Assembly (NCBI GenBank): GCA_964649615.1
Contig: CAZYPW010000006.1
Coordinates: 12,635 to 76,634, forward strand
Length of the DNA: 64,000 nucleotides
Reading direction: 5' to 3'
DNA from: an uncultured Gammaproteobacteria bacterium
Lineage (GTDB): Bacteria; Patescibacteriota; Microgenomatia; Daviesbacterales; UBA10151
The notes below the pieces were generated by a model. The model ran no database searches and was not told the DNA's origin. It saw nothing but the letters and a program-made list of their open reading frames with translations. The translations under genes were made by a program, and so were the position numbers. Positions 9,271 through 64,000 of the stretch are shown here, piece by piece. Positions within the stretch are counted from its first letter, which is position 1. Every line of letters starts with the position of its first letter.

Positions 9271-9768
9271 CTAGGGTTTTCTCAGTGATTTTAAGATATC
9301 TACATTTTCTTTGTCTGGACCATTATCTGCAAAACCTGGGACTTCTAAAATAAATGGTAGCTCTTTTAAGGAAGGATTATTTAATAAATTCTCAAAGCCC
9401 TCTCTGCCTATCATTCCCTCCCCTATATTAGCATGCCTGTCTCTTTTAGAACCTAACTCAAATTTAGAATCATTAGCATGCACTACTGCTAAATTTTCTA
9501 GCCCTATCTCTTCCTAAAATTCTTCCAAAGTAGATTTTAAGCCAATTGGAGTTTTTATATCATAGCTTGAGGTGAAAGCATGGCAGGTATCTAAGCAAAC
9601 CTTAACCGTATTCCCACTTCCGATGTGGGAACGCACTCCTTTGCCTGCGATCGCATATGATTTTGTCAACACTTCTGCAGCTGCTAAATTCATGGCATAA
9701 ACTAACCATTCTATAGATTTTTGTAGGTGAGCAGGATTAGTAGAAACATGAGCTCCTACCTTTGTCAT
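9271..9768 (-). pseudogene. nfo: Endonuclease IV (nfo) remnant with internal deletion and frameshift
   Basis: The N-terminal ORF (9514-9768) has MTKVGAHVS and VCLDTCHAF but lacks about 130 core residues. The C-terminal motifs HANDSKFELGSKRDRHANIGEG are in another frame (9271-9483). The palindromic element at 9611-9631 lies inside. Confidence 0.55.
9611..9631. repeat. Family-1 palindrome TTCCCACTTCCGATGTGGGAA
   Basis: Inside the nfo remnant. Read as SHIGSGN on the minus strand. Confidence 0.9.
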
Positions 9769-16403: not shown

Positions 16404-17563
16404 ATAACTATTCTCTTTGTAGATTCTGCTAAATTAACTAGCAGTTCATAAGGAATGGTTTGGCAGATTTTAGCACAGTTTAAAATAGAATTTTTGCCCC
16501 TTGGATTATCGGAATAAACTATTACTTCTTGTCCAATATATGGTTTAGATACTTTGGTAATATCTATGGTGGTAATATTCATGCTGACTCTGCCTATGAT
16601 TGGACATTCAATACCATCAACAAAAACTATCCCTTTGTTAGATAACCTCAAATCAACTCCCTCATAGTAACCTAGTGGCAATATACCTACTGTCAGATTT
16701 CTTTTGGCAGTATAAAGACTCTCGTACCCTACCTTATCCCCTTTTTTTAGTTCTTTAATTTGAATAATCTTAGTTTTTAATTTTAAAACAGGTTTTAAAT
16801 CTACATTCCCACTTCGGATGTGGGAATTCGATATGCCATAGAGAGCAAGACCTACTCGGGCTATATTTACGTTGCAACCTCGAAGGTGGAATCGTAATAA
16901 TCCATCTGAGTTTTGGATATGAATATACTTTGGATTAAAACCAGCCTTCCTAACAATTTGTTGTACGTGCTTCAAATTGTTAATTTGCTTAAGATTCAAT
17001 CCATTCTTGGGATCATCTGCACAAGCAAAATGTGATATCAAACCTTCCACTTTTAAGTATTTTAGCCCTTTTAGTTCTTCTAAAAATAGTGGTAAATCTT
17101 TCATTTGAATGCCTTCTCTGCTCATACCAGTATCTACAAAAATATGAACACTACATTCTGGTTGATATTTACTTAAAACTTTAGCTGTTTTCAAATCATA
17201 TAAAGCAAAAGAAAAAGGCAGTTTTTTAACTTTAAAATTTTCAGGATTTGTATATCCCATTATTAAAATTTTAGTTTTAATCCTTGCTTTTAGTAATTCA
17301 TATGCTTCATATAAAGAATCAACACAAAAAAATGGTGCATTAACTTGGTCTAAAATTTTTGCTATCTCAACTATTCCATGCCCATATCCATTACTTTTTA
17401 TGACAGGGGCAACTTTAATTTTTTTAGTGCGCGAAGCGCGCGAGCTTTGCTCATTTAAAGAAGATAAATATTTGTAGTTATGAATTAAATTTGCTTTCGA
17501 CACCTCAATTAGATTTAAGGTTTGGTAATCTTTTTTAAATATTTTTAGAATTTTGCTTAACAT
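16400..17563 (-). CDS. alr: Alanine racemase
   Basis: PLP-lysine motif VIKSNGYGHG. Carries in-frame element insertions at 16806-16826, 16871-16890 and 17427-17447. Confidence 0.85.
   Translation of the reverse strand: MLSKILKIFKKDYQTLNLIEVSKANLIHNYKYLSSLNEQSSRASRTKKIKVAPVIKSNGYGHGIVEIAKILDQVNAPFFCVDSLYEAYELLKARIKTKILIMGYTNPENFKVKKLPFSFALYDLKTAKVLSKYQPECSVHIFVDTGMSREGIQMKDLPLFLEELKGLKYLKVEGLISHFACADDPKNGLNLKQINNLKHVQQIVRKAGFNPKYIHIQNSDGLLRFHLRGCNVNIARVGLALYGISNSHIRSGNVDLKPVLKLKTKIIQIKELKKGDKVGYESLYTAKRNLTVGILPLGYYEGVDLRLSNKGIVFVDGIECPIIGRVSMNITTIDITKVSKPYIGQEVIVYSDNPRGKNSILNCAKICQTIPYELLVNLAESTKRIVI
16806..16826. repeat. Family-1 palindrome
   Basis: In alr. Read as SHIRSGN. Confidence 0.9.
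16871..16890. repeat. Family-2 palindrome CAACCTCGAAGGTGG
   Basis: In alr. Read as FHLRGCN. Confidence 0.6.
17427..17447. repeat. Family-5-like GC hairpin GTGCGCGAAGCGCGCGAG
   Basis: In-frame in alr (SSRASRTKK). Confidence 0.6.
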
Positions 17564-17997: not shown

Positions 17998-20352
17998 ATG
18001 ACTTTTGAGGATTTAAGAAAAAAACATCCTGAGTTTATATATCATGGGTTTGAAAAAAAATTTGAAGATCAAACATTAAAAATCTATTTTGATTTTGAGA
18101 TATCTCCAAACATTAAATTCAGACCGGAAATTATTCTCCCAAACGTGTTCCCACATCGGATGTGGGAAGGCAAATTGGATAATTTGGTTTTTAATTTAGG
18201 AATGGTTGAGCTGATAAGTTACTGGAAAGCAACTTGTTCTCCAAAAATTACTATCAAAGCAGGTTTTTTAGATCAGGAACAAATTAAATTTTGGAAAAAA
18301 CTTTTAATAAAAGGCCTGGGAGAATTTTTTTATACAAACAGAATAGATTTTACCCAGGATGGGCTAGTTAATTTTGAAGTACGTTCCCACATGTCAAGTG
18401 GGAAGCCATTTGAGGGGATTTTGAAAGATAGAGATTTAATACTTGTTGGTGGAGGTAAGGATTCTGTTGTTACTTTGGATTCTATTTCCAAATCAGGTAA
18501 AGAATTTAACTGTCTGCTTTTAAATCCAACAGATGCAGCTATTAAAATTGCAGAAATCGGTGGGTGTAAAAATCCAATAATAGTGAAAAGAACAATAGAT
18601 CCTAAACTTTTGGAATTAAATGAGCAGGGTTATTTAAACGGCCATACTCCTTTTTCTGCATATCTTGCGTTTTTATCAATGCTATCTTCTGTAATTTATG
18701 ATTATAAAAATGTTGTTGTTTCTAATGAGTCCTCATCTAATGAAGGAAATGTGATTTGGATGGGTAAAGAAATAAATCATCAGTATTCTAAATCAGAGGA
18801 ATTTGAAAAAGACTTTAAAGAATATAGTCAAAAATATCTAGCTCCTGTTAATTACTATAGTTATTTAAGAGAATTAAATGAATTGGAAATTGCCAGAATT
18901 TTTTCCAACTTAGAAAAATACCACAAGGTTTTTAGAAGTTGTAACAAGGGTTCAAAACAAGGGAGTTGGTGTGGCAAGTGCTCAAAATGCCTATTCACTA
19001 ATTTAATTCTTTATCCGTTTTTAGGAAAAAAAATAGAAAGAATTTTTGGCAAAGATTTACTTGATGATGAAACTTTATCTCCAGTTATGGAAGAGCTTTT
19101 GCATTTGCCGGGTAAATTTAAGCCGTTTGAATGTGTTGGCACAAAAGAGGAAATTGAATATGCAATGTTGCTGGGCATTTTAAGAAGCAAGAGAAAATTA
19201 TTAGAAAGATATAAAGATCAGATATCAATCCTAATTTTGGGAATGGGCAGAGAAGGAATAGCAACAAGTAATTTTTTGCAAAAAAATAACATAAATTTCT
19301 CAACCTCTGATCAAAAAGAGGGGAAAAATTATCTTGATAAGTTAAAAGATTATGACGTGATTATTAAATCTCCCGGCATCCCCTATTTGATAGAAATTAA
19401 AAAAGCCAAAGAAAATGGAAAAATCATTTCATCTAGCACGCAAATTTTTTTTGATCTTTGCCTTGGGAAAATAATCGGCGTCACCGGTACCAAGGGCAAA
19501 AGCACCACCACATCCATGATTTATGAAGTCTTAAAATCAGGAGGCTTAGATGTTTACCTGGTGGGGAATATTGGTCAGCCAGCGCTGGATTTATTAGATA
19601 ATCTTAAGAAAGATTCTATAGTAGTTTATGAATTATCTTCATTCCAGCTAGCTGATCTTAAGAAAAGTCCTCAGATTGCAGTGATAACCAATATTTATCC
19701 GGATCATTTGGACTGGCATGGCAGTTTTGAAGATTATAAAAAAGCCAAAGAAAATATCAGTAGGTTTCAGACAAAAAATGATATTCTTATCTCCAATAAA
19801 AGAGGTGCTGAAGCTGCAAAAATTATTGGAAAATTATTTAAAATAAGTGAAGAAAAAATAAACAAAGCAATTAAGAATTTTAAGCCACTCCCACATCGGT
19901 TAGAATTTGTTGCAGAAAAAAATGGAATTAAATTTTATAATGATTCCCTGGCAACTAATCCCCATGCCACCATTTTTGGGTTAAAGACTTTAGGAGAAAA
20001 AGTAGAGACTTTAATAGCCGGAGGGCTTGACCGCGGGGTTGATTATTCCATTTTAGGACCGGTAATTGCCAATTCAAAAATAAAAAATCTAATTTTATTT
20101 CCTGATACAGGTAAAAAAATAGGAGAGGTCGTCAGTTATCAGCCCGCTTCGCTGCGAGGCGAGTCATCAGCTATCAGACAATTTCATGTTAATAATATGG
20201 AAGAGGCTGTTAAAATTGCTTATGAAAATACTTCCCCTGGAAAAATTTGCCTGATGTCCCCTGCCTCAGCCAGTTTTAATATGTTCAAAGACTATGAAGA
20301 TAGAGGAAATCAGTTTAGGAGTTGGGTTGCCAGATTAGGAAGAAGACACTAG
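17998..20352 (+). CDS. murD: Fusion protein: N-terminal PP-loop-like ATP-pyrophosphatase-type domain plus C-terminal MurD-type Mur ligase
   Basis: The C-terminal 400 aa have GVTGTKGKSTTTSMI (P-loop), NIGQPALDLL, DHLDWHGSFEDY. The N-terminal 400 aa have LVGGGKDSVVTLD (SGGxDS-like) and WCGKCSKC. Two in-frame palindromic elements at 18148-18168 and 18384-18404. Confidence 0.7.
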   Translation: MTFEDLRKKHPEFIYHGFEKKFEDQTLKIYFDFEISPNIKFRPEIILPNVFPHRMWEGKLDNLVFNLGMVELISYWKATCSPKITIKAGFLDQEQIKFWKKLLIKGLGEFFYTNRIDFTQDGLVNFEVRSHMSSGKPFEGILKDRDLILVGGGKDSVVTLDSISKSGKEFNCLLLNPTDAAIKIAEIGGCKNPIIVKRTIDPKLLELNEQGYLNGHTPFSAYLAFLSMLSSVIYDYKNVVVSNESSSNEGNVIWMGKEINHQYSKSEEFEKDFKEYSQKYLAPVNYYSYLRELNELEIARIFSNLEKYHKVFRSCNKGSKQGSWCGKCSKCLFTNLILYPFLGKKIERIFGKDLLDDETLSPVMEELLHLPGKFKPFECVGTKEEIEYAMLLGILRSKRKLLERYKDQISILILGMGREGIATSNFLQKNNINFSTSDQKEGKNYLDKLKDYDVIIKSPGIPYLIEIKKAKENGKIISSSTQIFFDLCLGKIIGVTGTKGKSTTTSMIYEVLKSGGLDVYLVGNIGQPALDLLDNLKKDSIVVYELSSFQLADLKKSPQIAVITNIYPDHLDWHGSFEDYKKAKENISRFQTKNDILISNKRGAEAAKIIGKLFKISEEKINKAIKNFKPLPHRLEFVAEKNGIKFYNDSLATNPHATIFGLKTLGEKVETLIAGGLDRGVDYSILGPVIANSKIKNLILFPDTGKKIGEVVSYQPASLRGESSAIRQFHVNNMEEAVKIAYENTSPGKICLMSPASASFNMFKDYEDRGNQFRSWVARLGRRH
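18148..18168. repeat. Family-1 palindrome TTCCCACATCGGATGTGGGAA
   Basis: In the PP-loop::MurD fusion. Read as FPHRMWE. Confidence 0.9.
18384..18404. repeat. Family-1 palindrome, variant B TTCCCACATGTCAAGTGGGAA
   Basis: Same gene. Read as SHMSSGK. Confidence 0.9.
20143..20166. repeat. Family-5-like CCCGCTTCGCTGCGAGGCGAG
   Basis: In-frame in the MurD part (PASLRGES). Shares CCGCTTCGC and GAGGCGAG with the 7553 copy. Confidence 0.6.
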
Positions 20353-21684
20353 CTTTCTGGGAAGCTTATCTATATCTCCTGCTCCCATAAAAAATACCAC
20401 ATCTCCATTTTTAACTTCTGCTTTTACCTCATTTAAGATTTGATTAATTGGTACCATTTTTACGCTATTGCGCACTTTTGGTACCACTTCACTATTTATA
20501 CTTTCCACAAGCTGTTGGCTGTTTACCAAACCTGTATCTACTTCTCTGCTGGGATAAATATCTGTAATTATGATTTTATCTACAGGAAGTTCCTTAAATA
20601 CTTTGACAAAGTCATCAAAAAGGGCTTTAGTTCTTGAAAACATGTGAGGTTCATAAATAAGAATTATTCTGTTATTAGGAAATTTTTGTCTGGCAGCTTC
20701 CATGGTAACTTTTATTTCTGTTGGGTGATGACCAAAATCAGAATATACTTTTGCATTATTATAATCCCCTAAATATTCAAACCTCCTGCCAACTCCAGAG
20801 TAGTTTTGCAGGCTTTGTCTAATAGTTTGTGGATCAATTTCTAGAAGTAGACCAACCTGCATAGCTGCTTGAGCATTTAACTTATTAAATTCTCCAGGGA
20901 TTTGCATTGGAAAATGCAGCTCATTCCTAGAATAATCTAAATATTGGACAAAATCATCATGATCGGAATGTTTTTGTCTAGGAGTTTTCATTACATGTTT
21001 AACTACTTCAGCTACATTTGAGTCAGATAAATTTGCCACAATGGTTTGTTTGCTTTGCAAAAGAAATTTTTCAAAGCTTTCTTTATAAGATTCAAAATCC
21101 TTAAAATATTCCGGATGGTCCATCTCTATATTTGTAACAACTGTAATATCCGGTTTAAGATGCAAAAAATTATCATTAAACTCATCTGCTTCAATGGCAA
21201 AGTACCCACGGCCGTTAGTAGTTTGTCGCTGGATTCTATAGTTTGTGCCCCACTTTGGGTGTATTGCTCCAAGTAAAACCGTTGGGTCTAAATTAGCATC
21301 TTCCAGCATTTGGGCAATCATGGCTGTAGTAGTTGTTTTGCCATGTGTTCCGCAAACAGCAATTACAAACTTATCATTAGTTAAATATTCACCTACAAAC
21401 TGTTGCCAAGTTATTACAGGAATTTTTTTTTCTTTGGCTGCTAGAAGTTCTGAATTATTTGGATCCAGTGAAAAAATTGCCGGTGTAACTGCCAATATAT
21501 CTACCTTCCCACTTCCGATGTGGGAAGCTGAATGGCCTTTTTCTAACTTTACACTTCCGATGTGTAACGTAAACTTGTTATTGGGTTCTAAATCACAACC
21601 AGTTATTTCATAACCTTGAGCTTGAGCGATAGCAGCAGCAGCAGACGCTCCAGACCCACCAATTCCTAAAAAATGAATTTTCAT
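20335..21684 (-). CDS. murC: UDP-N-acetylmuramate--L-alanine ligase
   Basis: Start MKIHFLGIGGSGASAAA at 21684 (the 78-aa upstream extension in the ORF track is rejected). Mur ligase GTHGKTTTTAM. In-frame element at 21506-21526 plus a degenerate copy at 21551-21569. Confidence 0.85.
   Translation of the reverse strand: MKIHFLGIGGSGASAAAAIAQAQGYEITGCDLEPNNKFTLHIGSVKLEKGHSASHIGSGKVDILAVTPAIFSLDPNNSELLAAKEKKIPVITWQQFVGEYLTNDKFVIAVCGTHGKTTTTAMIAQMLEDANLDPTVLLGAIHPKWGTNYRIQRQTTNGRGYFAIEADEFNDNFLHLKPDITVVTNIEMDHPEYFKDFESYKESFEKFLLQSKQTIVANLSDSNVAEVVKHVMKTPRQKHSDHDDFVQYLDYSRNELHFPMQIPGEFNKLNAQAAMQVGLLLEIDPQTIRQSLQNYSGVGRRFEYLGDYNNAKVYSDFGHHPTEIKVTMEAARQKFPNNRIILIYEPHMFSRTKALFDDFVKVFKELPVDKIIITDIYPSREVDTGLVNSQQLVESINSEVVPKVRNSVKMVPINQILNEVKAEVKNGDVVFFMGAGDIDKLPRKLVSSS
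21506..21526. repeat. Family-1 palindrome (with degenerate second copy at 21551-21569)
   Basis: In murC. Read as SHIGSGK, and the degenerate copy as LHIGSVK. Confidence 0.85.
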
Positions 21685-24430: not shown

Positions 24431-25105
24431 TTATTTTTGAGGCATGACCAGCATTAAATATTCTAAAATTGCCCTAATATTAACATTCTGATTTTGCCAC
24501 TGTTCAGCCTGCATAAGCTCTTTTAAAAGGTTTACGTTCCCACTTGACATGTGGGAAGCTAGATTTTTATGGAAATATGTAACCAGGGCAGGTAATAATT
24601 CTGCTCTATCTTTTAATTTTTCTATATATTCAAACCTTTGCTCAATACTGAAATCTAATAATTTTTCTATATCTTCTAAGTAGTTGGTAGTTGGCTTGCC
24701 TCGCTGAGTTGGCGAAGCGGGTAGTTGGTAGTTGGTAGTAGAAAGATGCTCAATATGGCAGCGTGACAGGACTGTTGGTAAAAATTTAGCATCAGAATCT
24801 GCGCCTAAAATAAATAAACCATTCTCAGGTAATTCCTCCAGAGTTTTAAGTAAAGCATTTTGGCCCTCAGGAGTTAAATCTGACCCATTTTCTAAAACCA
24901 CTACCCTGCCTTTGGCTGAGTATGGTTTTAAAGAAAAATGTTCTTTGATTTTTCTGGCTTGTTCTATGCCTAATTTGGAATCAACTGGATAGTATAAAAC
25001 ATCTGGATGGTTCGTGTTCCCACTTCCGATGTGGGAAGCTATAGTTTGTTGAATTTCCTGTTTCCTATCTTCTAAATTAGGTGAAATTAAAAGCCTTGCA
25101 ATCAT
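24431..25105 (-). CDS. holB: DNA polymerase III delta-prime-like subunit
   Basis: VVVLENGSDLTPEGQNALLKTLEE and the LSRC sensor motif. Three in-frame repeat insertions (24537-24557, 24681-24740, 25017-25037). Confidence 0.7.
   Translation of the reverse strand: MIARLLISPNLEDRKQEIQQTIASHIGSGNTNHPDVLYYPVDSKLGIEQARKIKEHFSLKPYSAKGRVVVLENGSDLTPEGQNALLKTLEELPENGLFILGADSDAKFLPTVLSRCHIEHLSTTNYQLPASPTQRGKPTTNYLEDIEKLLDFSIEQRFEYIEKLKDRAELLPALVTYFHKNLASHMSSGNVNLLKELMQAEQWQNQNVNIRAILEYLMLVMPQK
24537..24557. repeat. Family-1 palindrome variant B
   Basis: In holB. Read as SHMSSGN. Confidence 0.9.
24681..24740. repeat. GTAGTTG tandem heptamers flanking GC hairpin CTTGCCTCGCTGAGTTGGCGAAGCGG
   Basis: In-frame in holB (TTNYQLPASPTQRGKPTTNY). 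Confidence 0.7.
25017..25037. repeat. Family-1 palindrome
   Basis: In holB. Read as SHIGSGN. Confidence 0.9.
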
Positions 25106-43860: not shown

Positions 43861-45897
43861 CTAATCTGGATTTACTTCACGAGTAATATTTTGTAATCTT
43901 GCCTTAAGTAAGGGATATTTGTCAAGAGAAGGATCCAAATTTAGCAAATCTGCAGCTGCTTTTTTAGTTTTTTCAACCATTTGTATATCAGAAAAAGAAG
44001 CTATCTTAAATTCAAATCTGCCGGATTGCCTGACCCCAAAAATTTCTCCCCCTCCCCTGATTTTTAAATCAAGCTCTGCTAATTTTAATCCATCAAAGGT
44101 GTTTTCCATATATTTTAACCTGCGCCTATCACTTGACACATCCGATGTGTAAAGTAAACAGTAGGACTCTTTGGTACCCCTGCCTACTCTGCCTCTAAGC
44201 TGATGCAGTTGGGCAAGCCCAAACCTTTCTGCTCCCTCAATTACTATAATAGTGGCATTGGGAATATCCATGCCTACCTCAACAACAGAGGTGGAGACTA
44301 AAATTTGCACTTTACCTTCTTTAAATTCTGTTAAAACCTGCTCTTTTTCTTTACTCTTCAATCTGCCATGCAGCAAGCCTAATTTAAGGTTGGGGAAAAT
44401 TTTACCTAATCTTTCGTACTCCACCTTAACAGCCTTGACTGTAGTTAATGTTTCAGAGGCTTCTATAAAAGGTGTGATAATATATGCCTGATCCCCCTCC
44501 TTTACCCTTTTTTCTATAAATTTGTAAGAATCAGCCCTCTTTTTTTCTGGAACCAAATAAGTTTTTACCACAGGCCTGTTTTTAGGCATTTCATTGATCA
44601 CAGATAAGTCCAAATCACCATACAAAGTTAGAGCTACAGTTCTGGGGATGGGGGTAGCAGTGGTTGTTAAAAAGTGAGGTGGTTTGGCTTTTGCTCTCAA
44701 GATAGTTCTCTGTTCCACCCCAAACCTTTGCTGTTCATCAACTACTACCAGTCCCACATCGGCAGCGATTAGTTTTTCAGAAAGAAGAGCGTGAGTACCG
44801 ACAATTACCTCACTATCTTTGGCTTCTTTTTTAGATCCTGTATATATCCCCACTTTTATTTCAAAAGGTTCTAAAAGATTGGAAAGGGTAGAAAAATGCT
44901 GGAAAGCTAAAATTTCTGTAGGAGCCATAAAAAGAGTTCTTAATTTATTTAAGTGAATAAGGTAGGCAATGATTGCTACCACCACTGTTTTTCCTGATCC
45001 TACCTCACCCTGGATCAGCCTATTCATTGGTTGGCCCTTTTTCAAATCCTCAATTATTTCTGCAATCACTTTTTTTTGAGCGGAGGTCAGTTTAAATGGT
45101 AAGGATTTTAGAAAATAATTTAGATCATTTTTATTAATATCTAGTGGTGCTATGGGAGGTTTTTTCTTCCATTCCATCCTTGCTTTTTGGGTGGCTAAAG
45201 AAATGTAAAACAATTCATCAAAACCTAATCTTTCCCTGCTCTTTTCTATATCATCCCAACTTTCTGGGTAGTGAATCTTCCTGATAGCATCTTTTAAACT
45301 CAGCATTTCTCCTCTAATAAAACCAGGCATAGGATCTGTTAGTTGATTTTCTACTTGCGGCAGTAGTTGATCGATTTTAGTTCTTACCCATTTTGAGCTT
45401 AGCCCTTCAGTTTCCGGATAAACAGGGATTAATCCTCCTGTATGTAACCCTTTTTGATCCGTGTTCCCACTTGACGAGTGGGAACGTAGATTGATGTCAA
45501 GTTTTTCCCATTTCGGTACGATAATGGAAAGTCTACTTTTGTATTTGGTTAATTTTCCAGAAATTTGTAGCCTGTCACCTGTTGCTATTTGCTTAGTCAG
45601 CCAGCTCTGATTGAACCAGGTCAGATTTATCGGTGAGGTGCCATCATTAAATATTGCCTGGGTTAATATTTTTCTGGACCTGGTGTAAATATTTTTAATA
45701 GACCAGATTTCGCCTTGCAAGGTGACTACTTGCCCAATTTGAGTCTCTTTAGCAGTGGAGATTTGGGAAAAGTCATCATACCTGAAAGGAAAATGGTAAA
45801 TTAAATCCTCCACAGTATTTAGATTTAATCTGCCCAGTTTATATAAGAGGCCTGGGCCGGTACCAGCCAGTTTGGATAAAGGAGTGTTAAGTTCCAT
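43861..45897 (-). CDS. recG: ATP-dependent DNA helicase RecG
   Basis: Wedge domain, helicase motifs GEVGSGKT, DEQQRFG, QLRGRVGRG. In-frame elements at 45464-45484 and a degenerate copy at 44130-44154. Confidence 0.9.
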   Translation of the reverse strand: MELNTPLSKLAGTGPGLLYKLGRLNLNTVEDLIYHFPFRYDDFSQISTAKETQIGQVVTLQGEIWSIKNIYTRSRKILTQAIFNDGTSPINLTWFNQSWLTKQIATGDRLQISGKLTKYKSRLSIIVPKWEKLDINLRSHSSSGNTDQKGLHTGGLIPVYPETEGLSSKWVRTKIDQLLPQVENQLTDPMPGFIRGEMLSLKDAIRKIHYPESWDDIEKSRERLGFDELFYISLATQKARMEWKKKPPIAPLDINKNDLNYFLKSLPFKLTSAQKKVIAEIIEDLKKGQPMNRLIQGEVGSGKTVVVAIIAYLIHLNKLRTLFMAPTEILAFQHFSTLSNLLEPFEIKVGIYTGSKKEAKDSEVIVGTHALLSEKLIAADVGLVVVDEQQRFGVEQRTILRAKAKPPHFLTTTATPIPRTVALTLYGDLDLSVINEMPKNRPVVKTYLVPEKKRADSYKFIEKRVKEGDQAYIITPFIEASETLTTVKAVKVEYERLGKIFPNLKLGLLHGRLKSKEKEQVLTEFKEGKVQILVSTSVVEVGMDIPNATIIVIEGAERFGLAQLHQLRGRVGRGTKESYCLLYTSDVSSDRRRLKYMENTFDGLKLAELDLKIRGGGEIFGVRQSGRFEFKIASFSDIQMVEKTKKAAADLLNLDPSLDKYPLLKARLQNITREVNPD
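44130..44154. repeat. Degenerate family-1-like palindrome ACTTGACACATCCGATGTGTAA
   Basis: In recG. Read as YTSDVSSD. Confidence 0.6.
45464..45484. repeat. Family-1 palindrome TTCCCACTTGACGAGTGGGAA
   Basis: In recG. Read as SHSSSGN. Confidence 0.85.
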
Positions 45898-47294: not shown

Positions 47295-48866
47295 ATGAGC
47301 AAACAACTAACAAAATTATCTCAAGCTTTAATTGCAGCTTATGATAAAGATTATAAGCACAGCTTGGATAACACCATTTCTGTAAATCCTGTGGTGGCAG
47401 AACTGGCTGCCTGGTATGAAAAATTCAGGACTGCCATGGATTATCGGGATGATGAAGTTATCTTGCGCTCAGCCATTGAACGAATTTTAAAAAGAAGATT
47501 GATGATGTCAAATACTGGTGTAGCTATTGCTGCACCCTTAATTCGTGAACTTGTTTGGGCCAGATACTTTCCTGATGCATCAGTTTCTGAGTCTTCTGTT
47601 AACAAAGTAGCCCAAGCTATAGATTTATATGTCAAGCTTGAAGAAGAAATAAATAAAAAACACCGGATTAATAAGATGATAGTTTCTGAATGGATTATTC
47701 ACTTGCTTTCATCAGAGATAGAGGATATTTTAAAGCCTTCTCCAGAAAAAAATATGATGTGCAATTTTATTTTTAATATTTTTAAAAGCAGAGTTACTAT
47801 TTTGGATGATACAGATGAAATAAGGGATATTCAAGTTTTTATTGCAGTGAGGCGGGCCTTTGCTTATGATGACTTAGCTCTTTTAAGATTTCATTTATTC
47901 AGGCAATACTTTGGCCATTTAAATGCCCATAATTTAGACAAAATATCTACTGATTTTATGGATGGGTATAAAAAGATTGAAGAACAATTTAATTATCCAT
48001 CCAAAGATAAAATTCATAGCTATATTAAGGATCAGATGATCCCCTTTTTAATCTTGGATGATGTTTTAAGAAAATACAAAGGAAAGCTTCACTCTTTAAT
48101 TTCAGATGAAGAGCAGTTAAATTTAGCAATTTTAGAAGCATGCTCCTCAAGATATAAAACTATTGTGGGTAAAGTGAGAAGGGCTATTGTTAGAAGTGTC
48201 ATTTTTATCTTTTTTACCAAAGCAATTTTTGCCCTTTTTGTAGAAGGAGCTTTTGAGAGACTTTTATATGGAAGAATCGTTTGGCCCTCTATTGCCTTAA
48301 ATACTTTAACTCCACCAGCCTTAATGGTTTTAGTTGGGGTTTTTGTTAAAACTCCCGCAAAAGATAATTCTTTTAAAATTTCCCACAAAATAAGTACTAT
48401 TCTTTTTGATGAAAATCCTAATTTAGAAGTTCCTTTGCAAGTTAAAAAAAGGCCTTCCAAGATAGACCCCATAATTTGGATTTTGTTTATGAGTTTGTGG
48501 TTTACTACTTTTGTGTTAAGTTTTGGAGCTATTATTTTTCTTCTGACCAAGTTGGAGGTAAATCCTCTGTCTCAAGCTGTGTTTATATTTTTCTTAGCTA
48601 TAGTTTCTTTTGTAGGTTTTAGGGTAAACAGAACTGCCCATATGTATATTTTAAAAGATAAAAGAGAATATTTAGGATCCATACTTTTTGACTTTTTCTT
48701 TATGCCTTTTATCCAAGTAGGGAGAAGGTTAACGGCCTATGTTTCCCAAATAAATATCATTTTATTTGTCTTTGATTTTATTATTGAAGCTCCCTTTAAA
48801 GGAATAGTAGCCTTTTTAGAACAGTGGCTGCTCTTTTTAAGGACTCAAAGGGAAAAATTAGATTAA
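47295..48866 (+). CDS. Membrane protein, hypothetical (C-terminal multi-TM)
   Basis: 523 aa, with a soluble N-terminal half and 5-6 TM helices in the C-terminal half. Confidence 0.45.
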   Translation: MSKQLTKLSQALIAAYDKDYKHSLDNTISVNPVVAELAAWYEKFRTAMDYRDDEVILRSAIERILKRRLMMSNTGVAIAAPLIRELVWARYFPDASVSESSVNKVAQAIDLYVKLEEEINKKHRINKMIVSEWIIHLLSSEIEDILKPSPEKNMMCNFIFNIFKSRVTILDDTDEIRDIQVFIAVRRAFAYDDLALLRFHLFRQYFGHLNAHNLDKISTDFMDGYKKIEEQFNYPSKDKIHSYIKDQMIPFLILDDVLRKYKGKLHSLISDEEQLNLAILEACSSRYKTIVGKVRRAIVRSVIFIFFTKAIFALFVEGAFERLLYGRIVWPSIALNTLTPPALMVLVGVFVKTPAKDNSFKISHKISTILFDENPNLEVPLQVKKRPSKIDPIIWILFMSLWFTTFVLSFGAIIFLLTKLEVNPLSQAVFIFFLAIVSFVGFRVNRTAHMYILKDKREYLGSILFDFFFMPFIQVGRRLTAYVSQINIILFVFDFIIEAPFKGIVAFLEQWLLFLRTQREKLD

Positions 48867-48872
48867 TCCGTA

Positions 48873-48893
48873 TTCCCACTTGACATGTGGGAA
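48873..48893. repeat. Family-1 palindrome variant B immediately 5' of the RAYT gene
   Basis: Lies between the stop at 48866 and the RAYT ATG at 48915. Confidence 0.9.
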
Positions 48894-49352
48894 CGTAGTT
48901 GGGACTATGGAATTATGGCAAATCCTCCTTTTGCTTCTGGCGAGTTTTATCATATTTATAACCGTGGTGTAGAAAAAAGAAAAATTTTTCTTGATAAGTG
49001 GGATTATTTAAGATTCTTAGAGACCCTAGATTTTTACCGCAAATCCCCCAACCCAATGAAACTATCGGATTTTAGAAGAGGTGTAATTAAACTTAAAAAG
49101 AATGAAGATCAGAAGGAAATAGTCAGAATTTATTGTTATTCTCTAATGCCGAATCACTTTCATCTGTTAGTTCAACAACTGGAAGAATCTGGAATTACTC
49201 AATTTATGAGAAAATTATCTGATAGTTATACCAGGTTTTTTAATACCAAGTATGAGAGGGTGGGTTCTCTTTTTCAGGGAAGCTTTAAGGCAAAATTAAT
49301 TGAAACTGATGAATATTTACTTCAGCTTTCAAAATATATTCATCGAAACGCG

Positions 49353-49373
49353 TTCCCACTTAAGATGTGGGAA
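49353..49373. repeat. Family-1 palindrome TTCCCACTTAAGATGTGGGAA inside the RAYT ORF
   Basis: Read as FPLKMWE. Confidence 0.85.
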
Positions 49374-49566
49374 GGTAAAGTTTATCCATATTCCTCCTAC
49401 GGGTATTATCTAAACGGGGAGAAACATCTATTCTGTGACACAGAATTTATAGGGGCATTTTTTTCTAAAACAAATCCTAAACTAAGCTATAAATCTTTTG
49501 TAGAGGAAACAGAGTTTGGGGATCCAATAGCAGTTTATAATCTCTCCATAGATAATGATGAATGCG

Positions 49567-49587
49567 TTCCCACATCGGATGTGGGAA
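49567..49587. repeat. Family-1 palindrome at the RAYT 3' end
   Basis: Encodes the C-terminal VPTSDVGS plus the stop. Confidence 0.9.
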
Positions 49588-49599
49588 GCTAAATAATAG

Positions 49600-50448
49600 T
49601 TAGGTTTTGTAGGGGTAAGGTCTGTTTCCAACAACTGGTGGATTTGCTATAAATCTGTAATAAACCATTGCTCTTATTTCTTGAGTTGGATATTCTGGAA
49701 ACCCATTATCTGGAGTTGGTAAAGAAAACATCCATGCCATAACTCCGGCTGGAAAAGCTCCTGATCCTTCTAAGGCATATAAAACTCTGACTGCTTGTGA
49801 GGCATGAGCTACAACACCTATCTCATCTCCTGATTGGATTTGAAGATTCAAAGGTAAGCTAAATGTTTGTATTTGATCCAAAAGATTATATTTTTCAGTG
49901 TTAAATCTGGGATGATCCACAGGATTAATAATAGAGACTCTATCAGGAGGGTATCCTAAGCCTTCAGGAATTCTAAACCAGGGAACCTTTGCTGCTTCTA
50001 TCAAATGAGCATTTTCATCTGATCTTCCATTATAAATTATTATTGGGCCATATTTTCTAATTAAATCTAATTCAGATGGAATATTTCCTGTAATTTCTCT
50101 TCCAGCTCTAATCTCAGCTAATCTTCTGGCCACTTTAAACCCATAATTTATCCTTCTCCTATCCGCCCAATGGGCCCACTCCTTATTTGCATATCTATCT
50201 TTTTTGTTTCTTTTAAAATATGTGCCTGGTGCAGATATTACCCAAATTGCTTTTATTCTGTCTGCATCTTCTTGGTTGAGGTTAAGTTGGGATCCTTGAG
50301 CAGCTTCTTCCAGTTGTTGATAAGTTCTGACAGCTTCATCTAAGAATGAACTTACTTCATGCAAGTCTTTTTCTTTCAGGGCTTCAGCCCACAATTCAAC
50401 TTGTTTAATGCTTTGTAAAACTGCTTGAGGGGTAATTACTTCTTTCAT
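49600..50448 (-). CDS. Hypothetical protein (possibly DUF218/YdcF-like)
   Basis: 282-aa ORF. Weak resemblance (VVAHASQAVRV) only. Confidence 0.35.
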   Translation of the reverse strand: MKEVITPQAVLQSIKQVELWAEALKEKDLHEVSSFLDEAVRTYQQLEEAAQGSQLNLNQEDADRIKAIWVISAPGTYFKRNKKDRYANKEWAHWADRRRINYGFKVARRLAEIRAGREITGNIPSELDLIRKYGPIIIYNGRSDENAHLIEAAKVPWFRIPEGLGYPPDRVSIINPVDHPRFNTEKYNLLDQIQTFSLPLNLQIQSGDEIGVVAHASQAVRVLYALEGSGAFPAGVMAWMFSLPTPDNGFPEYPTQEIRAMVYYRFIANPPVVGNRPYPYKT

Positions 50449-50548
50449 AAACTTAAATTATACTATAATTTAGGCTCATAGCAAATTTAGTGTTGACTGA
50501 TTTTGAAATCCTCTTGTAAAATAATCTATTAAACTTGATAATTAATAT

Positions 50549-54141: not shown

Positions 54142-56372
<2,231 letters not shown>

Positions 56373-57980: not shown

Positions 57981-58001
57981 TTCCCACATCGGATGTGGGA
58001 A
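57981..58001. repeat. Family-1 palindrome, intergenic copy
   Basis: Lies within the atpD/atpC island. Confidence 0.9.
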
Positions 58002-60559: not shown

Positions 60560-61486
60560 ATGGTAAAAGCACCTGATCTTTCGATAATAATTCTTAACTA
60601 TAATGTTAAGGAACTATTACTCAATTGTTTAGAGTCTATTTTTAAAAACAAGGGTAAGGAGGATAAGTGGCAGGTAGTTGTGGTGGATAATGCTTCAATA
60701 GACGGCTCAGTAGAAGCAGTTAAACAACTACGTTCCCACATGTCAAGTGGGAACACAGTTGATATTATAGAAAACAGGGAAAATATGGGATTTGCCAATG
60801 GTAATAATGTGGCTATTCCTAAAGTTAAAGCGCCTGTAGTTTTATTTTTAAATCCAGATACCAAAATTGTGGGAGATGTGATTCAAAAATGTTTAGATAA
60901 ATTGCTTTCTAATCCAGATCTCGGGGCAATTAGCCCAAGAGTAGAATTGCCCGATGGCAGATTGGATTACTCCTGTCACAGAGGTTTCCCTACTCCCTGG
61001 AATTCTTTGATGTATTTTTCAGGAATTTCAAAGTTATTTCCTAAAATTAAATTATTCTCAGGGTACACTGCTTCATATTTAGATACTCAGACAGAACATG
61101 AAATAGATTGTATTACTGGAGCTTTTTTGATGGTTAGAAAAATTGCTGGGGATCAAATTCACTGGTGGGATAAGGATTATTTTTTTAATGGTGAAGATAT
61201 TGAATTTTGTTTTTCTTTAAAAGAAAAGGGTTGGGAAATTTATTATTACCCAAAAGTAAAAATAATCCACTACAAGGGTTCTTCTTCAGGATTGTGGTCT
61301 ACTGCTAAAATTCAAGTTTCTAAAGAATCCAGGTTGAAATCCGCAAAACATTCCACAGGAGCCATGAGAATTTTTTATATGAAGCATTATTATAAAAAAT
61401 ATCCGGTTTTTTTCAGGGACTTGGTTTTGCTGGGAATAAAGTCGCTGGAGCATTACAGAAAGGCAAAAATATGGATCTCTCGGTAA
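60560..61486 (+). CDS. Glycosyltransferase family 2
   Basis: LSIIILNYNVKELL, VVDNASIDGS, and a DxD-like region. In-frame palindromic element at 60733-60753. Confidence 0.8.
   Translation: MVKAPDLSIIILNYNVKELLLNCLESIFKNKGKEDKWQVVVVDNASIDGSVEAVKQLRSHMSSGNTVDIIENRENMGFANGNNVAIPKVKAPVVLFLNPDTKIVGDVIQKCLDKLLSNPDLGAISPRVELPDGRLDYSCHRGFPTPWNSLMYFSGISKLFPKIKLFSGYTASYLDTQTEHEIDCITGAFLMVRKIAGDQIHWWDKDYFFNGEDIEFCFSLKEKGWEIYYYPKVKIIHYKGSSSGLWSTAKIQVSKESRLKSAKHSTGAMRIFYMKHYYKKYPVFFRDLVLLGIKSLEHYRKAKIWISR
60733..60753. repeat. Family-1 palindrome variant B
   Basis: In the GT2 gene. Read as SHMSSGN. Confidence 0.9.
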
Positions 61487-62370
61487 TTATTTTAAGTTAT
61501 AATACTAAGGAAATAACGGATGAATGTTTAAATAGACTTCAGCAATCAGTCGCCAGCTGTCAGACAAAATTAAAAAATAAAATAGAAGTAATTGTTTTGG
61601 ATAATGCATCCAGTGACGGGTCTTTGGAAATAATCAAGCAGAATCACCCCTGGGTAGAATTGATAGAATCCAAAGAAAATACCGGTTTTTCTAAGGGTAA
61701 CAATTTAGCAATAAAACAGTCCATCAACCCGTATGTTTTATTTCTTAACTCTGATGCCTATGTGGAAAATGATACCCTGGAAAAGGCTATGCAGTGTTTT
61801 AAAAATCCTGATTGTGACGCTTTAGGCCCAAAATTAGTTTTTGAGAATGGGGACTTTCAGCCATCAGCCGGTAATTTACCAAATCCTTTTAATATTCCTC
61901 TTTGGATTTTGGGATTATCTTTGATTCCAGGTATAAATAAGCTAAATTCCTACCATCCAAAGCATAAAGAATTTTTTAATAAGATGAGACAGGTTGGTTG
62001 GGTGACCGGGGCTTTTTTTATGCTTAGGAAAAAGGTTTTAGATAAAGTAGGCTTATTTGATGAAAATTTATTTATGTATAGTGAAGAAATTGAGCTTTGC
62101 AAAAGGATTAAGAACGCAGGATTTAAAATTTGGTATATTCCAACGATTATCGTTACCCATCTTCACGCTGCTTCATCTAGTTTTGACACCTCCCTTGCAT
62201 TTATAAATGAACTAAAGGGCCTTAAATATTATTTTGGCAAATACTATCCTTCTTGGTATTTTTTAGTCAAATTATTTTTAATATTGGGTTTGATTTTAAG
62301 AGTTATAGCTTTTTCGCTCCTAAAACCTTCAAGAGCCAGGGCGTACATAAAAGGTTTATCAGTTATATGA
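61471..62370 (+). CDS. Glycosyltransferase family 2
   Basis: LSVIILSYNTKEIT...VLDNASSDGS. Confidence 0.8.
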   Translation: MDLSVIILSYNTKEITDECLNRLQQSVASCQTKLKNKIEVIVLDNASSDGSLEIIKQNHPWVELIESKENTGFSKGNNLAIKQSINPYVLFLNSDAYVENDTLEKAMQCFKNPDCDALGPKLVFENGDFQPSAGNLPNPFNIPLWILGLSLIPGINKLNSYHPKHKEFFNKMRQVGWVTGAFFMLRKKVLDKVGLFDENLFMYSEEIELCKRIKNAGFKIWYIPTIIVTHLHAASSSFDTSLAFINELKGLKYYFGKYYPSWYFLVKLFLILGLILRVIAFSLLKPSRARAYIKGLSVI

Positions 62371-64000
62371 AATTAGCAATTATTACTGTTAATTATAATG
62401 GAAAAGATGATAGTCTAGAGTTTTTAGGTTCCTTAAAAAAACTACGAACAACACACCGCCCCTTCGGGGCAACGAACTACGAACTACGAACTATATTAGT
62501 GGATAATGCATCAAGCGATGAATCAGTTTCTGCTATTCATAAGCAATTTCCTGAAGTGGATATTTTACAAACTGGTTCTAATTTAGGATTTTCCGGAGGG
62601 TTTAATAAAGGTATAGAATACGGTCAAATCTGGGGAGCAGATTATTTCCTACTAATAAATAATGATTGCTTAATTAAAGATTCTGGTTTATTAGATGAGT
62701 TAATTAAAACATTAAAATCAGATGAAAAAATTGGTTTAGTTTCTCCGAAGATTTATTTTGAAAAAGGATATGAATTTCACAAGAATAGATATTCTAAACA
62801 GGATTTAGGTAAAGCGATTTGGTTTGCCGGAGGAGAATTTGACTGGAATTTTGTGGGAAATAAACACAGAGGAATAGACGAAGTTGATTCTGGAAAATAT
62901 GATTTAGTAGAGCAACAGAATATTTTTTCCGGTGCTTGTGTACTTATAAAAAAAGAAGTATTTGAAAAAGTTGGCATGTTTAATGAAGATTATTTTTTAT
63001 ATTTTGAGGACTCTGAGTTTGCCAAAAGAGCAACTGATGCTGGATTTAAAACTTATTATAATGGCCAGGTTTCCATCTATCATAAAGTCTCCCAGTCAAC
63101 TGGAATTGGTTCTAAAATTACAGATTATTATCACACCAGAAACAGGTTAATTTTTGGAATGAAGTATGGAGGTTTAAGAACTAAATTCGCATTACTCAGA
63201 GAAGCCATAAAATTATTCTTATTTGGTAGGCCCGTTCAAAGGCAAGGAATATTAGATTTTTATTTAGGAATAAGAAGAGGTGCCAACGTAATCCACCTGG
63301 AGGGTGGTCTAGGTTGGCACCCTCAAGTAGAATATCCGCTTAAACTATCTATAGGTATAGTAAACTATAACACTGCTGATTTAACCAAAAAATTATTAGA
63401 CAGCATTTTTGAAACACGTTCCCACATGTCAAGTGGGAATACGGATGATGTGGAAGTAATTGTCCTAGACAATGGTGATATTGATCCCTGTAAAGACAAA
63501 ATAAAAGAATATTTGCCTAGGATAAAATATCTTAAAAATGAAGAAAATGAGGGATTTTCCAAAGGTTATAACAAAACAATTAGATACTCTTTGGGTGAGT
63601 ATTATTTAATGCTAAATTCTGATATTGAAGTATTGGAGAATGGGTTATCTGAATTAGTAAGGGTGGAAGATGAGTTTAAAGGTGAAGCAGTGTTGGGTGG
63701 GAAATTAGTTTTTCCAGATTTAAGCAAGCAAGATTCTGCATTCCATTTACCCACTTTAACTGGAGCATTTAAGGAATATTTTTTAGCAAAAAAAGGATCT
63801 TATTTTATGTATCAGCCTGAAAGTGATAAACCCTCAAAAGTGGATGGGTTGGTAATGGCTTGTTTGTTAATTCCTAAGAAAGTATTACAAAAAGTAGGGC
63901 TTTTGGATGAAGGAACTTTTATCTTTTTTGAGGATATTGAATATTGCAGGAGGTTGAAAAAATTTGGTGTACCACTATATTTTGTACCATCTGCCAAATT
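62367..64000 (+). CDS. Tandem two-domain GT2 glycosyltransferase, 3'-partial (runs off the window; absent from the ORF track for that reason)
   Basis: ATG overlaps the upstream TGA. The first GT2 domain is MKLAIITVNYNG...LVDNASSDES. The second is LSIGIVNYNTADL...VLDNGD. The frame stays open to nt 64000. Repeat insertions at 62456-62492 and 63419-63439. Confidence 0.7.
   Translation, partial: MKLAIITVNYNGKDDSLEFLGSLKKLRTTHRPFGATNYELRTILVDNASSDESVSAIHKQFPEVDILQTGSNLGFSGGFNKGIEYGQIWGADYFLLINNDCLIKDSGLLDELIKTLKSDEKIGLVSPKIYFEKGYEFHKNRYSKQDLGKAIWFAGGEFDWNFVGNKHRGIDEVDSGKYDLVEQQNIFSGACVLIKKEVFEKVGMFNEDYFLYFEDSEFAKRATDAGFKTYYNGQVSIYHKVSQSTGIGSKITDYYHTRNRLIFGMKYGGLRTKFALLREAIKLFLFGRPVQRQGILDFYLGIRRGANVIHLEGGLGWHPQVEYPLKLSIGIVNYNTADLTKKLLDSIFETRSHMSSGNTDDVEVIVLDNGDIDPCKDKIKEYLPRIKYLKNEENEGFSKGYNKTIRYSLGEYYLMLNSDIEVLENGLSELVRVEDEFKGEAVLGGKLVFPDLSKQDSAFHLPTLTGAFKEYFLAKKGSYFMYQPESDKPSKVDGLVMACLLIPKKVLQKVGLLDEGTFIFFEDIEYCRRLKKFGVPLYFVPSAK
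62456..62492. repeat. GC hairpin CGCCCCTTCGGGGCAACG plus CGAACTA x3 tandem
   Basis: In-frame in the GT2 gene (HRPFGATNYELRT). Reverse complement of the TTCGTAG array. Confidence 0.7.
63419..63439. repeat. Family-1 palindrome variant B
   Basis: In the two-domain GT2 gene. Read as SHMSSGN. Confidence 0.9.

Follow-up and report, generated by a model that had tools for sequence, protein, structure and literature searches.

A probable REPtron-like pairing of a RAYT-type HUH/Y1 enzyme with a largely intragenic palindrome family in Candidatus Daviesbacteria

Why does a small transposase-like gene carry the same short palindrome in front of its start codon, within its reading frame and across its stop codon, while further copies lie inside housekeeping genes of the same genome? 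The question is raised by the open reading frame (ORF) at 48915–49592 (+) in a 64,000-nt stretch of contig CAZYPW010000006.1 (assembly GCA_964649615.1, positions 12,635–76,634), which as a whole is called the window below. Its source is titled an uncultured Gammaproteobacteria bacterium and placed by GTDB in Daviesbacterales. We consider it probable that gene and palindrome form a REPtron-like unit of a candidate phyla radiation (CPR) bacterium (Candidatus Daviesbacteria), in which a tyrosine transposase of the kind linked to repetitive extragenic palindromes (REPs), known as RAYT or TnpA_REP, is paired with a cognate element of about 35 nt. REPtrons with one repeat family per RAYT/TnpA_REP enzyme are established (PMC6006769).

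The gene and its three palindromes

The sequence-only reading that singled out this ORF relied on two peptide motifs, MPNHFHLL and SKYIHRNA. Both are present in the 225-residue product, and their motif residues (N80-H81-F82-H83 and Y141-x-H143-x-N145) show no variation across 56 homologues. The HUH codons H81-F82-H83 (49155–49163, +) align to the HUH motif of ISDra2 TnpA, and the predicted catalytic tyrosine motif Y141-I-H-R-N145 occupies 49335–49349 (+), with Y141 at 49335–49337. F120-Q121-G122 is likewise invariant, and it may resemble the W-Q motif among the GTAG-recognition residues of E. coli TnpA_REP (W94, Q95 and R104). Residues 65–145 match Pfam PF01797 (Y1_Tnp) with 39 bits against a gathering threshold of 23 (E=1e-9). 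A search among 5.8 billion proteins returned 4121 relatives, of which those with a named source come mostly from CPR Microgenomates; the best 120 of the 4121 are 64–100% identical and about 215 residues long, their named sources being Candidatus Daviesbacteria, Levybacteria, Microgenomates and Patescibacteria. A single gene of this kind is found in the window by tblastn.

When the sequence profile of the family was compared with solved structures, a weak match to ISDra2 TnpA was obtained (E=0.13), in which the HUH and Tyr positions are aligned. An AlphaFold2 model of the protein (predicted local distance difference test, pLDDT, 80; predicted template-modelling score, pTM, 0.80) was then compared with the PDB using Foldseek. 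The top match is 4ER8, the E. coli RAYT with its REP hairpin (E=4e-5; template-modelling score 0.65, target-normalised), followed by the TnpA proteins of IS608, ISDra2 and IS200, and all 22 matches with E ≤ 0.001 are either RAYT or these TnpAs. In the model Y141 sits on helix 132–144. Motifs and fold together indicate that the product is a RAYT-like HUH/Y1 enzyme, with predicted catalytic activity. Our own motif comparison suggests that the Y141/N145 region corresponds to Y115/N119 of E. coli TnpA_REP. In that enzyme the metal site is formed with the help of Y115, N119 and H123, an NPVKHGWV-type segment follows the Tyr, and the post-Tyr residues and C-terminal tail sit at the active site and are regulatory (PMC3479197).

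All three palindromes that had been read before, inside and at the end of the ORF are exact copies of TTCCCAC-N7-GTGGGAA. The upstream copy (48866–48900; core TTCCCAC-TTGACAT-GTGGGAA at 48873–48893, feet ATCCGTA and CGTAGTT) begins 7 nt past the stop codon of the preceding gene; 21 nt separate its end from the ATG, one fewer than first counted. The internal copy (49353–49373, loop TTAAGAT) is translated in phase 0 as F147-P-L-K-M-W-E153, which forms a loop of lower confidence in the model. The 3' copy (49567–49592; core 49567–49587, loop ATCGGAT) is translated in phase 1 as VPTSDVGS, and the claim that it supplies the final codons and the stop is borne out, the TAA at 49590–49592 being provided by its 3' foot GCTAA. 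The resulting C-terminal tail, disordered in the model, is also found in the homologues P0002, P0003, P0007, P0010 and P0075. In the window as a whole 15 exact copies occur against 0.17 expected from dinucleotide-preserving shuffles, and given this density the probability of three copies within the 720 nt at the RAYT gene is about 7e-4.

Folded as single-stranded DNA (ssDNA), the copies give hairpins of -6 to -9 kcal/mol. About 7 nt past each arm are conserved too, so that the element measures about 35 nt rather than the 21 nt of its core, and both feet follow the consensus C-R-Y-R-G-W-T, with variants such as CGTAGAT, CACGGAT and GCTAGAT. The stem is a perfect 7-bp palindrome, unlike the imperfect hairpin of a canonical REP, and the orientation of a copy is therefore set by its loop alone. 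This is the sole abundant G+C-containing hairpin family in the window. A check whether the 5' and 3' copies form a REPIN-like doublet (two inverted REPs close to each other) came out negative: they lie about 700 nt apart and have loops from different variants, and the window contains no REPIN doublet, its two nearest copies being 214 nt apart. No Rfam family matched at gathering thresholds across the whole window, and neither a terminator-like nor a convincing promoter-like site was recognised around the RAYT gene.

The palindromes also bear on where the gene is taken to begin. The database protein P0001 (235 aa) starts at an ATG at 48885, within the upstream palindrome; we prefer 48915 because the family N-terminus M-x-N-P-P-F is conserved. 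The gene models of P0001, P0010, P0015, P0016 and P0047 start in or upstream of the 5' palindrome (MWER..., MWEY..., MTSGNT...), and several homologue models end in the palindrome-derived tails C[IV]PTSDVG[RS]. Palindromes thus seem to distort the called starts and ends of genes in these genomes.

Palindromes at related genes and the history of the locus

Relatives were compared at 79 loci (numbered L001 onwards) from species-representative genomes. Palindromes accompany other copies of the gene, as expected if the two belong together: they are present at the orthologues L001–L004, L008, L011 and L082, and paralogues carry different palindromes of their own at matching positions. Orthologues of at least about 70% identity keep TTCCCAC-N7-GTGGGAA, and L006 and L007 (61–64% identical) have the variant TTCCCACCT. 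Paralogues of about 45% identity have other palindromes, including TGGCAGGGT, CCTTCCGGGA, TAGCTTCGCAAGGC, CCTGCAAGGA, TGACAAGGG, TGTTCGAAGT, TGACAAGG and TGTACACCT, in the same places, namely 5–70 nt upstream of the start and at or just past the stop. At many loci an extra palindrome lies within the ORF, 1–5 residues after Y-x-H-x-N. At 17 of 51 loci this internal site contains an arm of the hairpin that flanks the same locus, as opposed to 1.6% for pairs from different families, and the 17 matching loci span 9 palindrome families. Where the stem differs from one related subfamily to another, the upstream, internal and downstream copies all show the change (CCTTCCGGGA / CCTGCAAGGA / TTACAGGGA). 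Elsewhere in a locus, palindromes of its own family occur at 0.043 per kb and those of other families at 0.001 per kb, an enrichment of about 40-fold; the window holds the densest population among the loci compared. These relatives support, at the level of sequence, a cognate pairing of enzyme subfamily and palindrome. As to the kind of system, a RAYT/REP-type pairing, we find the sequence-only reading largely correct.

Some paralogues elaborate on the arrangement. The distant paralogues L074 (1479–1522, 2641–2680 and 3177–3218) and L044 (917–950 and 1612–1645) have composite flanking and internal repeats, in which two small inverted hairpins make up a 34–44-nt palindrome; here, then, the repeats are REPIN-like doublets, whereas the window has singlets. 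A second in-ORF site with a cognate palindrome lies in the N-terminal part of some paralogues (L022, 10122–10146; L058, 10123–10145, around residue 41; L074, 2641–2680, residues 53–60). Many of the metagenome-assembled genomes, L001–L003, L005 and L009 among them, are titled Gammaproteobacteria, Pseudomonadales or Planctomycetales, yet have Daviesbacteria gene order and proteins that are 60–86% identical; such record titles are probably wrong.

In the window the RAYT gene stands between p523 (47295–48866, +; 523 aa), apparently a membrane protein with 66–69% identity in relatives, and p282 (49600–50448, -; 282 aa); Pfam assigned no family to either. The gene follows p523 directly in the window, L001, L011 and L082, follows it with extra genes between in L003 and L004, and is inverted in L068, making 7 genomes in total, and it is absent from the p523 junction in L081, L083 and L084. 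Comparison of the p523–atpB junctions (L081, 6620–6705; L083, 6596–6670; L082, 5130–5930) revealed that a segment corresponding to 48867–50492, comprising REP-RAYT-REP and p282, is missing from L081 and L083. At its right edge the window retains a relic (50493–50545, +) of the last codons of p523 (TTGACTGA, 50493–50500) and of the p523–atpB spacer of L081, with 87% identity, and the segment therefore behaves as one indel. RAYT identity to orthologues, L001, L003, L004 and L011 among them, is 71–86%, that of housekeeping neighbours 61–73%. Together with the single copy in the window and the constant place after p523, this resembles the behaviour of a domesticated gene. Conservation at or above that of the neighbours could reflect either strong purifying selection or a more recent exchange of the gene between lineages.

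A cassette that is present or absent at one chromosomal junction among related genomes could also be an autonomous insertion sequence (IS) of the IS200/IS605 type, whose gene and two subterminal hairpins move together and whose solo palindromes are unrelated or by-products. Such an element would have a Y1_Tnp domain, as here, and end hairpins that are often direct, as they are in L004, L006, L015, L021, L028, L037 and L048; the relic of the p523 end at the right edge of the window points the same way, as does an 18/21 direct repeat of the p523 end that brackets the REP-RAYT-REP cassette in L082. This repeat, however, barely exceeds shuffled sequences, and nothing comparable was found in the window, L001 or L011, so we rejected a target-site duplication around the cassette. 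Y1 transposition gives no target duplication. The 64 kb hold one copy of the gene and far more solo palindromes, no TnpB partner accompanies it (the neighbouring ORFs have no Pfam match), and the fold is nearer to RAYT than to the TnpAs of insertion sequences. Its constant place after p523 in 7 genomes, with neighbours at 61–73% identity, implies one old event followed by losses. An autonomous insertion sequence is thus most unlikely, and we read the RAYT gene as one old acquisition with later losses rather than as ongoing transposition.

Copies in host genes and behind the catalytic tyrosine

The remaining 12 copies are dispersed over the window, and the repeats are not mostly extragenic: 12 of the 15 copies lie in long ORFs, two of these in the RAYT gene, and one more lies in a pseudogene. 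Eight are in alanine racemase (16806–16826; gene -, phase 2, NSHIRSGN, where the N- and C-terminal domains join), a 784-aa Mur-ligase-family protein (18148–18168; +, phase 0, FPHRMWE, and 18384–18404; +, phase 2, RSHMSSGK), a 527-aa Mur ligase (21506–21526; -, phase 2, ASHIGSGK), DNA polymerase III delta' (24537–24557, ASHMSSGN, and 25017–25037, ASHIGSGN; -, both phase 2), RecG (45464–45484; -, phase 2, RSHSSSGN) and ATP synthase gamma (54441–54461; +, phase 2, ASHIGSGN). The 224-aa ORF at 24431–25105, which with its two palindromes was considered as a second RAYT gene, is this DNA polymerase III delta'. Family-2 glycosyltransferase (GT2) genes contain two, at 60733–60753 (+, phase 2, RSHMSSGN) and at 63419–63439 (+, phase 2, RSHMSSGN), the latter in a tandem-GT2-like ORF that runs from 62367 to the window end (+) and owes its label to the orthologous gene in L081 and L082. 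In the first glycosyltransferase-like domain of that ORF (62367–63998, +) the peptide 'LRTTHRPFGATNYELRT' could be another decayed repeat-derived insertion. The copy at 9611–9631 (VRSHIGSGNTV on the - strand) lies in a degenerate endonuclease-IV-like gene (9271–9768, -), recognised by eye from its motifs, which is shortened, has an in-frame stop at 9514–9516 and is probably a pseudogene. The last copy (57981–58001) is in a region of short ORFs only.

A single phase accounts for 15 of 17 host-gene copies in five genomes and reads [LV]-[AR]-S-H-x-x-[SG]-G-[NK]. Translation of the consensus element in all phases offers an explanation. Phase 1 runs into a stop in foot A or C (...VGT*, ...VGS*) and is for that reason excluded within genes; the RAYT ORF and several homologue ORFs end just as this translation predicts. 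Phase 0 gives a bulky F-P-x-x-x-W-E, and phase 2 a hydrophilic peptide in which every residue agrees with the peptides observed. In host-gene copies of the common phase the last loop base is never T, which would encode Cys, whereas T is frequent there in non-coding and other-phase copies. The reading-frame bias could thus be explained for the most part by how the element translates, which fits selection. Replication direction was rejected as the cause of the orientation bias, since copies flip with the orientation of the gene. The loop variant that is free of Cys either way (TTGACGA/TCGTCAA) is found in both orientations; this favours selection on codons, although the sample is small and would also accommodate a transcription-coupled mechanism.

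The host-gene copies are not recent. Among 116 Daviesbacteria orthologues of ATP synthase gamma, the peptide at this site is intact in 23, decayed at unchanged length in many (ASHAGYGN, ASNPGGSS, ASDLTSGN, SSGLISGN, ASNLPADT, SSDLPADT) and 2–5 residues shorter in a minority. The gamma copy is, on this alignment, ancient and vertically inherited. A simple insertion model for host genes was rejected, as the palindrome adds no length relative to PDB homologues or some orthologues; in gamma this is explained by decayed copies of the same length among 120 orthologues. The RecG copy is orthologous to one in L001, and the L081 RecG gene also holds one (position 3345). The same gamma, RecG and GT2 loops hold different palindromes in related genomes. 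L001 gamma (11579–12526) contains TCCCTGC-GAAT-GCAGGGA and ATTCCCGC-CTGC-GCGGGAAT ('DSRLRGND'), RecG of L002 (1139–78) and L003 (5706–3670) contains CCCACAC-N3-GTGTGGG in another frame, and GT2 of L011 (19512–20447) and L068 (1559–648) contains AGCCCTTCGAC...GTCGAGGGACT. In L001 RecG, a 12-nt insertion is nested in the loop of a TTCCCAC copy.

Such ancient, vertically inherited copies could mean that the palindromes belong to the host and have nothing to do with the enzyme, being for instance binding sites, mRNA hairpins or products of templated mutation, and that the RAYT gene is one more tolerant site. Some RAYT loci indeed lack nearby dispersed copies, and L081 keeps intact copies in a 20.9-kb locus without RAYT. 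Three copies in the 720 nt of one gene are hardly to be expected on this account, nor is the recurrence of the three-position architecture with different palindromes in 9 families or the 40-fold enrichment of the own family. In syntenic loci anchored on ATP synthase gamma, the RAYT-bearing L082 has 6 copies in 20.8 kb, three at the RAYT gene and three dispersed, and the RAYT-less L083 and L084 have 0 copies in loci of about 20 kb, with 2 in the RAYT-less L081; palindrome density in these loci goes with presence of the gene. The closest structural relative of the protein, moreover, binds this very kind of hairpin. We find unrelated host elements hardly credible.

The copy behind the catalytic tyrosine is a separate matter. 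It is not an insertion in this genome, nor a recent one: its peptide FPLxxWE is nearly invariant across the orthologue group and takes the place of the classical NPVRAGLV stretch at the same length. Six orthologues share all 4 degenerate codons of the stem (TTC-CCA-CTT...GAA), compared with a single codon kept in 17 of 110 invariant-residue columns elsewhere in the gene, and TTC is a rare Phe codon in these genes (11 versus 67 TTT). This codon record indicates that the internal hairpin is maintained at the nucleotide level. Paralogues without it read NP[IV]xSxLVKDLxxYxWS at this place, which by our own comparison appears to be the counterpart of the NPVKHGWV-type segment of E. coli TnpA_REP. 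The equal length of the two implies that the palindrome replaces resident sequence and adds none.

We entertain, as a tentative and rather doubtful idea, that the hairpin inside the gene is no passenger but a cis element, kept up at one fixed post-Tyr codon position and changing with the repeat family of the enzyme. If so, the enzyme would read a copy of its own substrate in its own gene, coupling specificity or allowing autoregulation; alternatively, palindromes would overwrite resident sequence at equal length through RAYT-mediated strand exchange, a site-directed rewriting of coding DNA. Taken as a full alternative to the REPtron-like unit, a functional cis element or family source (the RAYT would recognise the hairpin in its own gene or mRNA, new families would arise there and spread outward, or copies would be installed by overwriting resident sequence) seems improbable. 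Its position 1–5 residues past Y-x-H-x-N is fixed in 9 palindrome families, its stem codons are frozen at synonymous sites, it stands in for the ancestral NP[IV]xSxLVKDL without net insertion, and stem changes are mirrored in the flanking copies; the post-Tyr residues and C-terminal tail of E. coli TnpA_REP are, moreover, regulatory parts of the active site (PMC3479197). Paralogues L021, L028, L034 and L039, however, have flanking hairpins and the canonical peptide with no internal hairpin, and with many flanked paralogues of this sort the internal hairpin is not required for the arrangement. Ordinary host-gene loops have also been colonised repeatedly by different palindromes, so no special function is needed, and homogenisation among neighbouring copies could account for the frozen codons.

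The proposed unit and known systems

The REPtron-like unit that we favour would comprise a chromosomal HUH/Y1 ssDNA endonuclease-ligase of the TnpA_REP type and the element [foot]-TTCCCAC-N7-GTGGGAA-[foot]. The enzyme would bind the palindrome once it has folded into a hairpin in single-stranded DNA, cut and rejoin beside it by means of Y141 and an H81/H83 metal site, and thereby copy or maintain the palindrome population. Because the genome has almost no intergenic space, insertions would mostly hit genes, and only insertions that leave the frame intact, in surface loops that tolerate them, would survive. The observed predominance of phase 2 (L-[RA]-S-H-x-x-S-G-N) would stem from selection on the encoded peptide, and the presence of three copies at the gene for the enzyme itself (5' leader, loop after the Tyr helix, 3' end with stop) would reflect preferential action nearby combined with few permissive sites. 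Both the cis-preference and the setting of phase and orientation by selection rather than by the mechanism of insertion are conjectural.

Several observations weigh against this proposal. Hairpin binding, cleavage and mobilisation by the enzyme are deduced from association; the earlier view of the transposase as the source of in-frame insertions gains from the presence of the same palindrome in housekeeping genes, but as their source it is putative. Of the model searches, Y1_Tnp succeeded but the NCBIfam RayT equivalog NF047646 (REP_Tyr_transpos) gave 38.3 bits against a cut-off of 80, and since the family's sequence profile did not pick up 4ER8, the link to E. coli RAYT runs through the fold comparison. 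Where GTAG occurs, in 16 of 92 half-sites, it follows the stem on the 3' side at a distance of one base, in place of the canonical 5' GT[AG]G. The full architecture with perfect stems is seen in just a third of loci, the RAYT-bearing L003 and L011 lack dispersed copies within 10 kb on each side, and the RAYT-less L081 retains 2 intact copies. The host-gene copies are old and mostly decaying, and the internal palindrome, equal in length to the NP[IV]xSxLVKDL segment, is not explained by simple insertion.

If the proposal is correct, its interest lies in the setting. RAYT/REP is the best-studied case of a domesticated transposase with a short-repeat population, studied almost wholly in Proteobacteria and there with extragenic repeats; in the present case the pairing would operate in CPR genomes that are ultra-small and nearly devoid of intergenic space, with repeats inside essential proteins. 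For ATP synthase gamma, RecG, Mur ligases, DNA polymerase III delta' and alanine racemase the copies map out naturally which loops tolerate insertions, and they may account for some unusual short insertions of peptide and some wrongly called starts and ends of genes in CPR annotations. At least 9 co-evolved enzyme–hairpin pairs would be useful for learning by what means ssDNA hairpins are read by HUH enzymes, and perhaps for HUH-tag engineering, and the upkeep of a hairpin within the enzyme's own gene is a lead towards self-regulation.

RAYT/TnpA_REP and REPtrons are reported by Nunvar (2010), Bertels and Rainey (2011, PMC3116915), Ton-Hoang (2012), Messing (2012, PMC3479197) and Quentin (2018, PMC6006769). 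The present system shares with them the HUH and single-Tyr core with a fold closest to 4ER8, short palindromes that flank the gene and also occur dispersed (here 12 beyond the three at the gene), a palindrome family for each enzyme subfamily, with several paralogues per genome possible and own repeats for each, and perhaps, judged from the window and from the p523 junction (where L081, L083 and L084 lack the gene), one strongly conserved copy at a conserved locus. It differs in scoring below the NCBI RayT cut-off, in its CPR/Patescibacteria host, in the symmetry of its hairpin, which has a conserved foot on each side and GTAG 3' of the stem, and in having mostly intragenic singlets in place of extragenic REPIN doublets. 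The literature searched contained no paper tying RAYTs or REPs to CPR bacteria.

REPs that flank tnpA_REP genes and also lie in frame inside them are known from subclass 2.4, where they occur between HuH and Y in a peripheral variable region; 'double-foot' REPs have been described as well (PMC6006769). The frame-keeping repeat inside the transposase gene is common to both, but ours lies 1–5 residues past the Y motif, where it replaces an NPVxxGLV-type segment at about equal length, is conserved in the orthologue group, is frozen at synonymous sites and covaries with the flanks in 9 families. Against IS200/IS605 TnpA (IS608, ISDra2), the HUH/Y1 fold, the recognition of ssDNA hairpins typical of that group and the often direct end hairpins are points of likeness; the single syntenic copy without TnpB, the identical cores at the ends and inside, and the many solo hairpins set it apart.

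Rickettsia palindromic elements (RPEs) are much longer than the present element, and we know of no cognate enzyme for them. The REPs published from within housekeeping and repair genes, and RPEs inserted in frame (Di Nocera et al. 2013, PMC3733652), resemble our copies in that short palindromes occupy tolerant loops of housekeeping and replication or repair genes, with the same site hit again in related species. Only a minority of those REPs are intragenic, whereas 12 of 15 copies here lie in long ORFs and 15 of 17 host copies share one phase. Published precedents thus exist for RAYT/REP systems, for intragenic REPs and for REPs within RAYT genes; what differs here is the CPR lineage, the intragenic and phase-biased singlets, the symmetric element with a 3' GTAG foot, and the covarying internal copy at a fixed post-Tyr position.

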